Origin: Gammaproteobacteria bacterium | Lineage (GTDB): Bacteria; Pseudomonadota; Gammaproteobacteria; Eutrophobiales; Eutrophobiaceae | Assembly (NCBI GenBank): GCA_965238225.1 | Contig: OZ250183.1 | Location: 192,001 to 256,000 of the forward strand | Length of the DNA stretch: 64,000 bases | Direction: 5' to 3' | Shown: positions 16,308-24,231 of the stretch, in pieces | Layout of the letters: every line of letters begins with the position of its first letter | Numbering within the stretch: position 1 is the first letter of the stretch | Position numbers and translations under genes: made by a program | Notes under the pieces: model-generated | The model's input: only the letters and a program-made list of their open reading frames with translations | Database searches by the model: none | Told to the model about the DNA's origin: nothing

Positions 16308-16901
16308 GTGAATACTTATAAAATAGAACCACACCACAGTCGGACTCGTGCGAGTCGCCTCGGCAGCATCCTTAATGCCACCGCTTGCCTTTTATCTTTG
16401 TCGTTTCTGGCTGGCTGTGCTCCGTCATGGGGCTGGACTAAAGATACCGTCTACATGCGCTGTGAAGATGGCGAGAAGCCCGCCATATTTGCCTACAGCG
16501 TCTCCGAGCAAGGCATTCAGTTCCCGGGGATGTCGGTCATGCTGCAACGCAACATCCCCAACTGGGTACAACAACTATGGGTGGCAGAAGATCAATTTTT
16601 GGTGATTTGGACTGGGCGGGCACTGCACTGTGATAATAGAGATGCAGATGGTCGTCTCAGCGCAGGATATTGCGAGGGTCATCGCGTGGTCACTGGATAC
16701 GAGATGATTAAATACGACCACGGACGCATGCGCCATTGGCATATGAAAGGCACTCGGCAGTTCACCGCCCAAGATATTAACTTCGAGCCAAACGAACAAG
16801 CGTACACCACCATAGCAGGGTGTGAACAACAATCTACCTTTACCCAACAGGCATTCGCCAACCTGCAATATTATTGGGCAGAGATACTACGACAATTTTA
16901 A
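16308..16901 (+). CDS. hypothetical cysteine-rich lipoprotein
   Basis: 197-aa ORF, hydrophobic stretch with lipobox FLAGC; about 53% GC in one sampled 60-mer, higher than the flanks; start uncertain. Confidence 0.6.
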   Translation: MNTYKIEPHHSRTRASRLGSILNATACLLSLSFLAGCAPSWGWTKDTVYMRCEDGEKPAIFAYSVSEQGIQFPGMSVMLQRNIPNWVQQLWVAEDQFLVIWTGRALHCDNRDADGRLSAGYCEGHRVVTGYEMIKYDHGRMRHWHMKGTRQFTAQDINFEPNEQAYTTIAGCEQQSTFTQQAFANLQYYWAEILRQF

Positions 16902-17011
16902 GCCAACAGTAATCATCAACCGCCGTATCCAAGTACACAACAAGGCTAGACTAAGGGTGTAGTGTTTGATGTGAATCTGATGAAATGGGCGTTATAATAA
17001 TAGACAACAAT

Positions 17012-17036
17012 AAAAAAGCCCCCGCTGGGAGGGCTT
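17012..17036 (-). terminator. tracrRNA intrinsic terminator
   Basis: Minus strand AAGCCCTC-CCAGC-GGGGGCTT-TTTT. Confidence 0.8.
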
Positions 17037-17120
17037 GGTCGCCTAAAGGCGTAGCCTACGAAATAACAATTTCATTGGTATGAAAAGCAAATCAATAAGC
17101 CTTAGTCGGTTACACTTAAG
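17012..17120 (-). ncRNA. tracrRNA
   Basis: 17095..17116 matches 21/22 nt of the repeat; pairing extends via TTTGC and TTCATACC with G-U pairs; followed on the minus strand by hairpin CGCCTTTAGGCG and a terminator. Confidence 0.85.
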
Positions 17121-17147: not shown

Positions 17148-20100
17148 ATGAGCAAGAAAATTTTAGGTTTAGATTTAGGCAGCAATTCTTTAGGCTGGGC
17201 ATTGCTTGAAGAGACGAGCGGCGAAGCAAGCAAGATCATCGGCTTAGGCAGCCGTATATTTACCAAAGCGGTGCAGGATAAAACACCAACACCAAAAAAT
17301 GTAAAAAGAAGACAGAGCCGACTAGGCAGGCGCGTATTACAGCGGCGCGCCAGGCGTAAACAGCGGATGTTAAATTATTTAGTGCATTTAAATCTATTGC
17401 CTAATGAACTGCAAAGTCATACACAACCTGAGGTACTCTTAAATAAACTGGGCGACCCATACGAGCTTAGGGCTAAGGCCTTAGATTCAAAATTATCACC
17501 CCATGAATTTGGACGGGTGCTGTTACATTTTGTTGCACGACGTGGCTTTTTAAGCACCAAAAAACAATTAGCAGGTGATTTGGTAGACGACCCAGATACA
17601 ATTCCCTATTTAAACGAGTTAGATGACAAACCTGTAAAAGATAAAAAAGATAAAGAAGGCAAAGAAGAAGAATCATTCAAGGCGGATATAGCCAAGTTAA
17701 GAGAAGATATGATAAAGGCTAACGCAAGAACCCTAGGAGAATATTTATATCATCTTGCCAAAGGATCATGCAAAAGAAACCGCGGTCATGATGGCGGACA
17801 TCTTAGAACTGACAGGAAAATGTACCAAGACGAACTAGAGAAAATATGGCAGCAACAAAGCCAATATTTCTCACATCTGCCAGATGATTTCATGCCTGAA
17901 AAAGGCATTAAACAAGGCATTAAACAAATTATTTTTTACCAAAGACCACTGAAACTAAAAAAAGATAGAGTGGGGAAATGTTCCCTTGAACTAAAAAATA
18001 ACCGTGCAGCCATGGCAAGATTAGAAGCACAGCGTTTTCGTTATCTGCAAGATATAAATAATCTACAATATTTTGAAAGTGAAACAGAACAATGGATAAG
18101 TATAACTAAAGAAAATAAACAGAAGCTTATTCAATATTTTGAGCATAACGGAAAAATAAAACTAACTGAACTTAAAAAAATATTAGGCTTAAAAAGCAAA
18201 ACTAAATTTAATCTAGAAGCTAAAAACCTTAAAGGTAATATCACTGCCTGTGAGATTCGTACAATATTAGGCGAATCGTGGGATAATTTTTCTGATGAAC
18301 AACAAAAAGCACTGCTTGAAGATTTATTATCAATCAAGAAAAAATCAGCCCTTAAGAAAAGATTATGTACACACTGGAACCTTGATGTACACCAAGCGGT
18401 TCAATTATGTCTATTGGAATTTGAACCATCACACGCTAATCATTCGCTCAAAGCAATCAATAAACTATTACCTTACTTAGAACAGGGATTGATCTATAGT
18501 GATGCAAGAAAAAAAGCAGGCTATGATTATGAGGTAAAGGAAATTACCACACAAGAAAAACTAGGCGCACCTCCTGCAACATCCAATCCAATTGTTAATC
18601 GTGGATTACATGAATTAAAACGTGTTGTTAATGCTATTATAAAACAATACGGCAAGCCCGATACGATTCGTGTTGAAATGGCTAGAGACTTGGAGATGAA
18701 TACCAAGCGGTATAAAGAAAATGAAGCAAAACAAAATAAAAATAAAAAAGCCAATGAAAAGGCAGTAGATGCTTATAGAAGTTTGAACCTAGGTCAATAT
18801 CCAAGTCATGACGATAAAATAAAATATCGCCTATGGGAAGAACAAAGCCGCTTGTGTGCATACAGCACACAATCTATCTCGTTAAATGCTGTATTTACTG
18901 CTGAGGTTGAGATAGACCATATTCTTCCCTTTAAAATATCGCGCGATAATTCTTATATGAATAAGGTGCTGTGCTTTACAAAAGAAAATCGAAATAAAAA
19001 GGATAGAACACCTATAGATGCTTGGGGCGGTAACAAAGAAAAATGGAATCAAATAACTCATGCAATCAGTAAATGGAAAGGTCTAGACAGCAAAGTAAAA
19101 CGTTTTCGCCAAACCAAAGCAGACCTACAAAACCGTGATTTTACTTCATCGCAACTCAATGATACACGTTATATTGCCAGGCTTGCCTTGGAATATGTCA
19201 AGCAATTAGCTTGTGATGTTTCGGTAACCAAAGGCTATGTGGTTTCGCAAATTCGTCACCAATGGGGCTTAAATGACTTAATCGGTGAAACAGACAAGAA
19301 AGACCGTGCCGACCACAGACATCATGCCATAGATGCCGCTGTGATTGCTGCTACATCCAGAAGTCTGTATCAAAACGCAGTGGCGCAGATTCAGCGTGAC
19401 AAGCTCAAGATCACACCGCCATATCCTGATTTTAGAAATGAATTAGACGAACACATAAAACACCTGATTGTCTCTCATGCGCCACAACGTAAATTATCAG
19501 GCGGTCTTCATGAGGAAACAGGCGCAGACTTTATCCAAAAACATGGTGGTTTGGTATGCCGAGAAAATCTCTCACCTGAATTTACAAACACTAAAAAGAT
19601 TGTGGATGAAACAATAAAAGAATTGGTTCAAGCACACTTGGATGATTATGCAGGAGATCCGAAAAAGGCCTTTGCTGATGGCGTCACTGTGTATCACAAA
19701 GATGGCAAAACACCCATCAAACGAGTTCGAATATTACAATCTGAAGTTAAAGTCACCAAAAACAAAATAGCCGAAGATATTTTAAGCCAAAAGAAATTTG
19801 GGGTGAAAGATAAGTCTGGCAAGATATTCAGATGGATGTCGTATGGCAATACGCATCATGTTGAAATTATCAAGCATAAAGCAACAGGAAAATACAAAGG
19901 TGAATTTGTTACTATGATGGAAGCCCATAGACGTGCAATGACAGGCACAAAATCCGCAATAAAAAGAAGAATTATACGAGAAGATATTATTAAAATTGAC
20001 CATGGTGATGACTGGAAATTTATTATGGCTTTGCATATTAATGACTTGGTGAGTATTGAGAAAAATGACAACGAAAGAGAATTTTATAAAGTGCAAAAAC

Positions 20101-20283
20101 TAAAGAAAGATAACAATCAGAATACAGATTACACTGCATACAGATGCACATAAAGCAACAGAAATACCCAAGGACAAGAAGCTATTAAAATCTGTGACTA
20201 CACTAATGTCTGATCAGTATAAATTGAAAAAACATTGCATCAATGTCATAGGAATATTTACAGATGATCAAACGCATCATTGA
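17148..20283 (+). CDS. cas9: type II-C Cas9; ORF stops at 20153 owing to an apparent +1 frameshift near 20118, natural end 20283
   Basis: RuvC-I ILGLDLGSNSLGWA, Arg-rich bridge helix, RuvC-II IRVEMARD, HNH EIDHILP, RuvC-III HRHHAIDA; the +1 frame continues RIQITLHTDAH...KKHCINVIG to a TGA inside cas1. Confidence 0.93.
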
Positions 20284-21163
20284 TATTAGCGATGCTGCAT
20301 ACCTTCATTTAAAACACCAGCAATTATATATTGATAAGCAAAATGAAACGGTGGGACAAATCCCCATAGAAGACTTGGGCGTTTTAATATTACAGCACCC
20401 AGCGATTGTTTTTACACAACAGCTTATTATCGCCTGCCAAAAGAATAAGGTTGTTATAATTTTTTGTGATGAAAAACACTTACCTTACTCAGTCATTCTG
20501 CCTATTGCAGAATCCAATACCTTGCATAATAAAATTCTCAAACAACAATTGAACATCACCGAGCCTGTACGTAAAAGATTATGGAAACAAATTGTGCAAC
20601 AAAAAATTAAGCAACAAGCGATAACACTCTCATTACTGAATAAAAATGCAACGCGGTTAAATTATTTGATGAGACAAGTAAAAACGAATGATAACGGTAA
20701 CTGCGAAGCAGTTGCTGCACAAGCATATTGGAAATTATTATTTGGCAATAACTTCAGACGAAATATTAATATGGATGGAATCAACAGTCTGCTTAATTAT
20801 GGTTATTCTATTGTGCGCGCAATGATAGCCAGAAGCATATGCAGCGCTGGATTACATCCAACTTTAGGTTTGTTTCATAAAAATCAATACAACGCCTTGT
20901 GTTTGGCAGATGACCTAATGGAGCCATTTAGACCTTGGGTAGATTGGCATGTCTATCATATGGCTAAAAATCAGCAAACAGAAATTAATCAACAAAATAA
21001 ACAAACCCTGCTGGCATTATTAAATGCAACGGTTGTCTATGCTGATAAAAAAATGCCATTTACAGTGGCAACACATTATTTTATGGCTGATTTGAGGCGT
21101 TGTTATACAAAAGAGAAAAAAAGCTTGGTTTACCCCGAACTGGAAAAAAGAGCTTATATATGA
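20264..21163 (+). CDS. cas1: type II CRISPR-associated integrase Cas1
   Basis: IPIEDLG, EAVAAQAYW, NSLLNYGY, LADDLMEPFRP. Confidence 0.95.
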   Translation: MIKRIIDISDAAYLHLKHQQLYIDKQNETVGQIPIEDLGVLILQHPAIVFTQQLIIACQKNKVVIIFCDEKHLPYSVILPIAESNTLHNKILKQQLNITEPVRKRLWKQIVQQKIKQQAITLSLLNKNATRLNYLMRQVKTNDNGNCEAVAAQAYWKLLFGNNFRRNINMDGINSLLNYGYSIVRAMIARSICSAGLHPTLGLFHKNQYNALCLADDLMEPFRPWVDWHVYHMAKNQQTEINQQNKQTLLALLNATVVYADKKMPFTVATHYFMADLRRCYTKEKKSLVYPELEKRAYI

Positions 21164-21489
21164 CATTTGGTGGGCTGCAAACAATGTGGATCATCGTATT
21201 ATTTGATTTACCAACAGATACCAAAACAACTCGAAAAGAATATACTCGATTCAGAAAGTGTTTATTGCAAGATGGCTTTACAATGATGCAATATTCAGTA
21301 TATATGCGCCACAGCAGCAGCGATGAGAATGCACAGGTTCATGCAAACAGAGTAAAAGGACAGCTTCCTGATGATGGCGAAGTGCGTATCATCAAAATCA
21401 CCGACAAACAATTCGGAAAAATAGAGGTTTTTTATGGAAAAAAGCGCATACCAACAGAAACAGCACCCCTGCAACTTCAGTTTTTCTGA
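21160..21489 (+). CDS. cas2: Cas2
   Basis: MWIIVLFDLP, GFTMMQYSVY, ITDKQF; ATG overlaps the cas1 stop; no csn2 or cas4, so subtype II-C. Confidence 0.95.
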   Translation: MTFGGLQTMWIIVLFDLPTDTKTTRKEYTRFRKCLLQDGFTMMQYSVYMRHSSSDENAQVHANRVKGQLPDDGEVRIIKITDKQFGKIEVFYGKKRIPTETAPLQLQFF

Positions 21490-21538
21490 AGAAATAAACT
21501 TATATTTATGCCTTAAATCAACAACTTACTTGCAAGAT
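21490..21538. promoter_or_regulatory. AT-rich CRISPR leader with an IHF consensus site at 21516..21528
   Basis: AATCAA-CAAC-TTA matches WATCAANNNNTTR, ending 10 bp before the first repeat. Confidence 0.65.
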
Positions 21539-24173
21539 AGTGTAACCGACTAAGGTTTATCTGCAATCCACAACACCTGCTCCGCCAGCATAATAGGCGG
21601 ATAGTGTAACCGACTAAGGTTTATCTGCAATCCACAACGAGAGGTCTTCGGCGAGAAAGTGTAACCGACTAAGGTTTATCTGCAATCCACAACAACAAGT
21701 TGACATCGGTGCACTTTGAGTGTAACCGACTAAGGTTTATCTGCAATCCACAAAGTGTCTGATTTGCCAATCTCGGCGAGTTAGTGTAACCGACTAAGGT
21801 TTATCTGCAATCCACAACTCGACTATGATAATCGTTTTAACCGTGAGTGTAACCGACTAAGGTTTATCTGCAATCCACAAGCTAAATCTCAACATGCTTA
21901 ATATTTAAGTGTAACCGACTAAGGTTTATCTGCAATCCACAACTGGATTATCTCTATGCCTGAGTGTAACCGACTAAGGTTTATCTGCAATCCACAACCT
22001 ATAAATTGGTCATGTAATTGAAAAATTAAATAGTGTAACCGACTAAGGTTTATCTGCAATCCACAACTATAATGCAAAACCTATAATTTATTTTGTGATA
22101 GTGTAACCGACTAAGGTTTATCTGCAATCCACAACGATGCCCATCAAGGATTCAACGTTCACGTTGTAGTGTAACCGACTAAGGTTTATCTGCAATCCAC
22201 AACTGCTATGGCTCAAGAGGCGTAATGTTCATGGGCAAGTGTAACCGACTAAGGTTTATCTGCAATCCACAACTGTGTATACCCTATTGTTTTTAATGAG
22301 CCTACGCCAAGTGTAACCGACTAAGGTTTATCTGCAATCCACAACAGGCGTGGTATAACTAGTTTGCTACGTTCATAACGTAGTGTAACCGACTAAGGTT
22401 TATCTGCAATCCACAACAGGAATGGCGGCGAGCGTTAGCAACAGTGTAACCATTTAAATATATAGTGTAACCGACTAAGGTTTATCTGCAATCCACAACA
22501 GGCGTATGAGCTTGTTGATGTGCCTTGCTGAGTGTAACCGACTAAGGTTTATCTGCAATCCACAACAAGTTGTAGTTGATTGTAGTTGCGTAGTTGAGTG
22601 TAACCGACTAAGGTTTATCTGCAATCCACAACCTGTCACTCTGTGCCCAAAGCTCGTATTGGAGTGTAACCGACTAAGGTTTATCTGCAATCCACAACTG
22701 GAATAATGCATAAAAGTGTAACCGATAGGTTTATTTTGTAAATTATTCCAAGAGTGTAACCGACTAAGGTTTATCTGCAATCCACAACATCCCTGCGATT
22801 TTGACGGAATGCGATCTTAAGTGTAACCGACTAAGGTTTATCTGCAATCCACAACTTATATGCCTATTTTACATGAGCCTATGCCTGGAGTAGTGTAACC
22901 GACTAAGGTTTATCTGCAATCCACAACCTCACTTAGTATAGCCTTTATCGAGTCGATTAAGTGTAACCGACTAAGGTTTATCTGCAATCCACAACGGCAA
23001 ATGTCAGCGCTTGCACTATTAATAAGTGTAACCGACTAAGGTTTATCTGCAATCCACAACTTGTCTTACCTCGGGTTGAAAATAGTGTAACCGACTAAGG
23101 TTTATCTGCAATCCACAACTTATAATGCTATAACTTTTATAAGTCAAAGTGTAACCGACTAAGGTTTATCTGCAATCCACAACCACAATTTCCAGCATAT
23201 GTACGTCACACTTTAGTGTAACCGACTAAGGTTTATCTGCAATCCACAACGGTTTATTGTTTTTAAATAGATTAAGTGTAACCGACTAAGGTTTATCTGC
23301 AATCCACAACTGCATATAAGGCTGCGTGTTACAATCAGTGTAACCGACTAAGGTTTATCTGCAATCCACAACTAGCGGCTCTGTTAGCCATTAAAAGTAC
23401 CCTAAAAAGTGTAACCGACTAAGGTTTATCTGCAATCCACAACTAAGTCGTGCGAGTAGTGGATGTCTTGCAACTTATGAGGTTTAGTGTAACCGACTAA
23501 GGTTTATCTGCAATCCACAACATCCGTTGAGCATCGAATGTCGGCATAACTAGTGTAACCGACTAAGGTTTATCTGCAATCCACAACTAAGGTGCAACTT
23601 TGTAGGCAAGATATGGCGTTAGTGTAACCGACTAAGGTTTATCTGCAATCCACAACTTGTCAAACGAGGATATGATAACGCTTGTAATCGAGTGTAACCG
23701 ACTAAGGTTTATCTGCAATCCACAACCTTTATCGTAGTTATACGGCTGATCGTCATGATAAGTGTAACCGACTAAGGTTTATCTGCAATCCCACAACGGG
23801 GAACGGAGTAATTTGTTTGGCTTGAGTGTAACCGACTAAGGTTTATCTGCAATCCACAACAAGACCTGGGCAAAATGAGTGTAACCGACTAAGGTTTATC
23901 TGCAATCCACAACATATCAAGCCATTGAAATTCCTTTGATGAGTGTAACCGACTAAGGTTTATCTGCAATCCACAACTTGTGCTTTGGATTCAATTTCCG
24001 TTATAACAAGTGTAACCGACTAAGGTTTATCTGCAATCCACAACATGGAGCCGACTGTAGATATCAGTATCGCAGTGTAACCGACTAAGGTTTATCTGCA
24101 ATCCACAACGCTTTTAGAAATGAGTAAAAGCCTTGACAGTGTAACCGACTAAGGTTTATCTGCAATCCACAAC
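21539..24173 (-). CRISPR. type II-C CRISPR array: 40 repeats, 39 spacers, 2 embedded partial repeats
   Basis: 36-bp repeat GTTGTGGATTGCAGATAAACCTTAGTCGGTTACACT (minus strand); variants at 21719 and 21846 (terminal base) and 23761 (extra C); orientation inferred from the GTTG start and tracrRNA pairing. Confidence 0.98.
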
Positions 24174-24231
24174 CATCAGGCAAAACCCATGTTAAAATAA
24201 ACGCCTATTAAAACTTACCAAAATATAAAAA

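Follow-up and report, generated by a model that had tools for sequence, protein, structure and literature searches.

In type II-C CRISPR-Cas systems the spacers usually vary little in length and measure about 30 nt, a regularity that lies outside the formal definition of the type. In the type II-C system of Riemerella anatipestifer, 23 of 24 newly acquired spacers were reported to be 30 bp long and one to be 31 bp (PMC6008519). Work on the type I-B system of Haloarcula hispanica indicates that spacer size is not wholly fixed by the integrase (PMC5416893), and a review locates promoters of the II-C arrays of Neisseria and Campylobacter within the repeats themselves (PMC5965381). Concerning the sequences themselves, assemblies from communities are described as typically recovering CRISPR loci poorly (PMC3664793); strain heterogeneity together with repeats is reported to complicate assembly, and the cross-mapping of reads within repeats to be able to distort a polished sequence (PMC3664793, PMC6593500). 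Here, we describe a computational analysis of a type II-C locus in which the spacers are of very irregular length, an irregularity that is most likely not new biology.

The locus lies in a window of 64,000 nucleotides (the whole stretch of DNA that was analysed), taken from a genome that consists of a single contig of 1,722,049 bases with 40% G+C. It is a complete, intact and ordinary type II-C system made up of tracrRNA, cas9, cas1, cas2 and array. The cas9 gene (17148..20153, plus strand) encodes a protein of 1001 aa with HNH_4, RuvC_III and Cas9_a domains. Its best solved relatives are Cas9 entries of 1082-1092 aa (9ar4, 8ja0, 6kc8, 6jdq and others; E ~1e-73), which we take to be type II-C enzymes of the Neisseria/Geobacillus kind, and its HNH and RuvC motifs align with those of the solved Cas9 structures. 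On the same strand stand cas1 (20264..21163, 299 aa; Cas_Cas1, E = 2e-33) and cas2 (21160..21489; CRISPR_Cas2, E = 6e-20), the latter giving 109 aa from the ATG at 21160 in a reading frame that is open from 21100. Cas1 is present in a single copy genome-wide, a search of the whole genome for Cas4 family matches gave none, and no ORF remains at the locus for csn2. The sequence-only reading had classed the locus as type II-C, and this assignment is right, with an HNH and RuvC Cas9, cas1, cas2 and an anti-repeat, and with neither cas4 nor csn2. The neighbours are a nucleotidyltransferase gene, rsfS and an ORF without family upstream, and maf and an H+-pyrophosphatase (H+-PPase) gene downstream. 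An ORF of 197 aa at 16308-16901, between rsfS and the tracrRNA, has no Pfam family, and its N-terminus resembles a lipoprotein signal.

A candidate tracrRNA was placed upstream of cas9, at 17008..17118 on the minus strand, its presumed ends enclosing an anti-repeat at 17095-17116, in which 21 of 22 bases agree with repeat positions 15-36 read as the reverse complement. The anti-repeat is followed on the minus strand by a stem-loop and T run resembling an intrinsic terminator (17036-17016), and the duplex of the minus-strand repeat with the anti-repeat was calculated at -40.7 kcal/mol, with nearly the whole repeat paired. From the orientation of anti-repeat, terminator and duplex, we infer that the tracrRNA and the crRNAs are both minus-strand transcripts, whereas the cas genes lie on the plus strand. 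The anti-repeat that belongs to a type II-C system is thus present in the sequence. At its 3' end on the minus strand, the window repeat has a hexamer that agrees with the -10 consensus at 4/6 bases, and the repeats of some relatives reach 5/6; a simple consensus promoter scan called one minus-strand site with that hexamer and not each repeat.

The adjacent array of identical ~36-nt repeats typical of type II-C is also present. It extends over 21539..24173, with the minus strand as the presumed crRNA strand judging by the tracrRNA orientation, and consists of 40 copies of a single 36-nt repeat, 37 of them perfect, separated by 39 spacers of 17-54 nt. Repeat 4 (start 21719) has its last base changed or absent, as has repeat 6 (start 21846), and repeat 34 (23761-23797) contains a single additional C. 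In array order, spacers 1-20 measure 28, 19, 25, 29, 27, 27, 19, 33, 32, 32, 34, 36, 36, 46, 31, 30, 30, 54, 31 and 36 nt, and spacers 21-39 measure 32, 29, 23, 28, 31, 24, 26, 35, 42, 30, 33, 34, 34, 27, 17, 28, 31, 29 and 28 nt. The mean length is 30.7 nt and the median 30 nt (SD 6.7, range 17-54 nt, n = 39); three spacers are exactly 30 nt and 17 fall within 28-32 nt, so that spacers of nearly uniform ~30 nt are not a feature of this array. We know of no comparable spread of spacer sizes in a type II system. The lengths listed by the sequence-only reading were borne out with 1-nt differences at spacers 4 and 6 only, which depend on how the deviant final base of repeat 4 and of repeat 6 is assigned, and its counts of 30-nt spacers (3/39) and perfect repeats (37/40) were the same when recounted. 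No further copies of the repeat were found elsewhere in the window, and this CRISPR array is the only one in the genome. Spacer 16 (22567-22596, 30 nt) is mostly three copies of one 7-nt word. The array ends in a full terminal repeat, 58 nt ahead of the maf start codon (flank 24174-24231).

For comparison, 16 loci were used in which Cas9 is 28-74% identical over the best-matching segment, most of them in metagenome-assembled genomes with labels from several orders. Arrays with repeats of the same family were present in 10 of the 16, and others were added from genomes that share the window's family or class. Across 18 related or same-host-family arrays with 36-nt repeats, 562 of 568 intervals measured 28-32 nt and 468 exactly 30 nt, the remaining six being gaps of 72-4607 nt that contain a mutated repeat or an insertion. 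A nineteenth related array has four spacers, each of 30 nt, and regular arrays of 127, 46, 42, 38 and 32 repeats occur in single-contig relatives. The array of the window is the sole irregular one among those compared; its 17-54 nt irregularity, first noted from the letters, is real in the sequence and far exceeds anything in the related arrays. Interrupted arrays were seen in L001, L034 and L037, with intervals of 578, 227 and 4607 nt, possibly representing inserted elements. At the cas-distal end of the arrays in L004, L006, L007 and L014, a 30-nt spacer is followed by a repeat truncated to ~14-24 nt.

The sequence from the cas2 stop to the first repeat (21490..21538, plus strand) is the presumed leader-side flank. 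It contains a conserved motif of ~27 nt that is found at the same place in L001, L004, L005, L007 and L011, and is thus common to relatives whose proteins are just 60-75% identical; the motif is a candidate leader-anchoring sequence. Its conservation there, on the same flank as described in the R. anatipestifer study (PMC6008519), points to the cas2 side as the leader end. The closest relatives of Cas9 and Cas1 (62-74% identity; among L001-L016 and L023-L031) are in genomes labelled as other orders and phyla, and Cas1 proteins in genomes of the window's own family reach 26-48% identity at most. By these protein comparisons, the CRISPR locus was apparently acquired horizontally.

In our judgement, the irregular spacers are probably a consensus artefact that arose over heterogeneous or mis-registered reads. 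The array would differ between cells of the sequenced population, or the reads would have been aligned out of register. Consensus building or polishing would then keep the repeats, where all reads agree, and yield patchwork spacers of arbitrary length, and two half-deleted repeats would remain where reads differ in the number of units. The ragged lengths would, in that event, most likely be absent from the DNA of any single cell. We favour an artefact because the irregularity is unique to this array while its Cas1 and Cas2 are normal, because 23 of 24 new spacers were reported at 30 bp when a type II-C system was followed by experiment (PMC6008519), and because poor assembly is reported to be typical of CRISPR loci in communities (PMC3664793). 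The sequence-only reading had set a consensus over differing reads beside ruler-free acquisition or remodelling after integration; the former is favoured by the length blocks, the coding signal and the toy simulation set out below, and the latter gain no support from the comparison with relatives.

The order of the lengths within the array is one of the internal clues. Spacers 1-7 measure 19-29 nt, spacers 8-21 30-54 nt, spacers 22-27 23-31 nt, spacers 28-33 30-42 nt and spacers 34-39 17-31 nt. A runs test on the 36 spacer lengths other than 30 gave 9 runs (permutation p = 0.0005), and the lag-1 correlation of spacer-length ranks was 0.49 (p = 0.00015). Such blocks of short and long spacers should not arise from independent acquisitions. 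Lengths centred on 30 are what noise about a true value of 30 nt would produce, and the spread runs both ways from that value, whereas failed trimming would lengthen spacers and decay would shorten them. The two longest spacers hold pieces of repeat, recognised by eye: spacer 14 (22418..22463, 46 nt, no strand assigned) has at 22443-22451 the 9 nt with which the repeat begins, and spacer 18 (22699..22752, 54 nt, no strand assigned) contains a decayed repeat copy from 22715. The diverged copy in spacer 18 stands oddly amid 37 perfect repeats. The blocks, the centring on 30 and the repeat fragments in spacers 14 and 18 all argue for the artefact. The ends of spacer 18 form a perfect 9-bp inverted repeat that flanks the decayed copy.

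The coding signal of the spacers was taken as the best-frame codon log-odds, trained on the long ORFs of the genome that contains the window, minus the mean of each spacer's shuffles. For the 39 window spacers the mean excess was 0.0097 +/- 0.0063. The corresponding value was 0.0243 for 480 spacers of relatives (bootstrap p = 0.03); for a reference pool of 199 spacers from relatives, similar to the window's in their low G+C and picked after the data had been seen, it was 0.0327 (p = 0.001; rank test p = 0.002). Expressed as z, random pieces of this genome gave 4.5 +/- 1.2 and 33 window spacers 0.7. Simulated chimeras of real spacers gave 0.0171 +/- 0.0076, a range within which the window value falls. 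Spacers 12 and 20 are related and separated by indels whose lengths are not divisible by three; this and the weak coding signal also favour the artefact. Shared 8-mers among the spacers numbered 25, compared with 12.1 +/- 5.2 in random genome pieces (2.4% of the samples reach 25), which is weak evidence because the arrays of relatives likewise exceed their shuffles, owing to duplicated spacers. A smear of one unit between neighbouring spacers was tried and rejected, the registered identity of spacer ends being equal to that of shuffles; the lack of registered similarity between neighbours thus argues against a simple one-unit smear, and counts among the points against an artefact.

A toy model of consensus building was run with a partial-order aligner and heaviest-path consensus, scored for match/mismatch/gap at 3/-5/-4 and at 5/-4/-8, on simulated arrays composed of the window repeat and random 30-nt spacers. 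With clonal or 60%-dominant input, all consensus spacers were 30 nt (14/14 and 42/42, with each scoring). Five equal strains or 20 different strains gave repeats that were all perfect and spacers of 23-42 nt, with 5-13 of 41-42 at exactly 30. When no strain was in the majority and the number of units varied by one or two, the recognisable repeats were perfect (176/176) and the spacers spread over 13-159 nt, of which 8/166 were exactly 30 nt and 45/166 lay within 28-32 nt; a piece of repeat was found inside 10 of 20 long spacers. The toy shows that a partial-order consensus over mixed arrays is sufficient for the main features of the pattern, which favours the artefact further.

Several observations count against it. 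In the toy consensus the block pattern failed to appear (mean lag-1 correlation -0.04, with 5 of 10 runs positive), and the spacers were too long (mean 34.8, median 33). A coding signal below that of the window occurs in 2 of 13 relatives' arrays, both with a spacer G+C of ~0.53. With no spike at 30 nt, the artefact would have to affect essentially every spacer, including the presumed old end. The assembly outside the array looks accurate. The window holds 56 tidily packed ORFs; candidate frameshifts, counted on both strands, occur at 23 of 4180 homopolymers (0.55%) versus 96 of 20900 control sites (0.46%); and coding tandem repeats elsewhere in the genome keep to periods that are multiples of 27. 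General long-read indel noise as the cause was rejected, since there is no excess of frameshifts at homopolymers. An artefact of this kind would also not be systematic, since the arrays of other relatives assembled as a single contig are clean. Searching metagenome contigs and genome contigs for the exact repeat returned 0 matches, so that a second assembly of the array is absent from those collections. A 20-nt word was found 57 times at G000:C1 ~797,000-812,000, 1,174,000-1,176,000 and 1,648,000-1,654,000, the distances between copies being mostly multiples of 27 nt, and probably marks genes for very large repeat-domain proteins.

The alternative that survives best is real imprecise acquisition, in which Cas1-Cas2 or a host prespacer-trimming step no longer measures 30 nt and pieces of ~17-46 nt are integrated; we consider it unlikely. 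It takes the sequence as given, which does show irregular lengths in an assembly that otherwise looks accurate, and a loose ruler would be expected to produce such broad lengths with no spike at 30 nt. At 1.72 Mb the genome is small, it lacks Cas4, and its Cas1 has the change G142N, close to a conserved glutamate, in a position that does not vary among 11 relatives. If crRNAs start inside the spacers, as in the Neisseria type, the shortest guides would be too short to cut. Improbable too, in our estimate, is the corresponding statement about the system as a whole, namely that this is a natural II-C locus whose otherwise ordinary Cas1-Cas2 integrates ~17-46 nt and whose array mixes cutting guides with guides that are too short and perhaps only bind.

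The adaptation proteins do not bear out such a loss of measurement. Against the 11 closest relatives, Cas1 is 48-74% and Cas2 59-85% identical, both over their full length. Singleton changes in otherwise invariant columns were counted in an alignment of 12 sequences (the window and 11 relatives): the window Cas1 has three (G142N, M267T, K278R) against 0-12 in the relatives, and the window Cas2 has none in that alignment. At residue 142, Cas1 has Asn in the window and Gly in 11/11 relatives, six residues ahead of a conserved glutamate. A broken or odd integrase was rejected as the cause, for neither Cas1 nor Cas2 is truncated, poorly conserved or unusually rich in changes at invariant sites; an additional Cas1 or a Cas4 was likewise rejected, the genome-wide search having found neither. 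It therefore speaks against imprecise acquisition that Cas1 and Cas2 show the same degree of conservation as their counterparts in relatives with strict 29-31 nt arrays. The length blocks are unexpected from independent events, the coding signal of the spacers is weak, and the long spacers hold repeat fragments. Among the papers judged by title and abstract, none offers a type II array of such spread. Ruler-free acquisition or remodelling, as put forward from the sequence alone, thus finds no support in the comparison, in which Cas1 and Cas2 proved conserved and complete and the related arrays were all regular.

A further point against imprecise acquisition is that a protospacer was found for none of the spacers, with 460 related genomes among the sequences searched. 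The whole array had no match in phage records or in plasmid records, and a search of the spacers against their own genome gave nothing beyond the tracrRNA anti-repeat. A degenerate pattern made from the two related spacers had 0 matches in viral and metagenome contigs, and three 22-nt pieces of spacers had 0 matches in viral contigs. Against 61 and 401 related genomes, the array found related repeats only, together with chance-level matches of 20-27 nt, the best of which lies in AT-rich intergenic DNA and ends after 25 nt. Chance matches of 9-14 nt only were obtained with 567 spacers of relatives. The comparison of spacers with viral databases that had been proposed earlier was thus run; it returned no full-length match for any spacer and decides neither for an artefact nor for real irregularity.

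Post-integration remodelling, in which spacers of 30 nt were later altered by small indels or recombination while selection or gene conversion held the repeats identical, finds some likeness in the partial repeats of two long spacers, which resemble deletion scars, but is very unlikely because it would have had to alter 36 of 39 spacers and just 3 of 40 repeats, the indels sparing 37 of 40 repeats, which account for over half of the array's length; longer spacers are moreover as frequent as shorter ones although decay is expected to delete, and the cas genes are intact.

Either outcome would matter. If the lengths are real, they violate the rule that type II spacers are measured by the Cas1-Cas2 integrase; the locus would represent the first case of a Cas9 system that lacks a functioning spacer ruler, and a natural array that mixes cleaving with merely binding guides. 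If they are an artefact, as we favour, a closed and otherwise accurate genome can hold perfect repeats with fictional spacers, and spacers mined from such arrays would mislead the linking of hosts to viruses. Irregular, block-wise spacer length that is missing in relatives would then be a cheap flag for faulty arrays.

Among the described cases, the papers on assembly from mixed populations do not describe ragged spacer lengths in the parts drawn on here (PMC3664793, PMC6593500), and the link to them rests on the toy simulation. The H. hispanica I-B system, where spacer size was reported not to depend wholly on the integrase, is of another CRISPR type and has Cas4 (PMC5416893). The promoters reported within Neisseria-type repeats (PMC5965381) have at most a possible counterpart in the window repeat, where the -10 match is just 4/6. 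R. anatipestifer has the same gene set as the window, and differs in that its new spacers were reported at 30 bp, a length found in 3 of 39 spacers here (PMC6008519). Type II-C systems of the Neisseria meningitidis kind are likewise close: in them, as at this locus, a three-gene cas9-cas1-cas2 operon lacking csn2 and cas4 goes with 36-nt repeats and with a tracrRNA whose anti-repeat is long; the difference lies in the spacers, which are ~30 nt there and 17-54 nt in the window.
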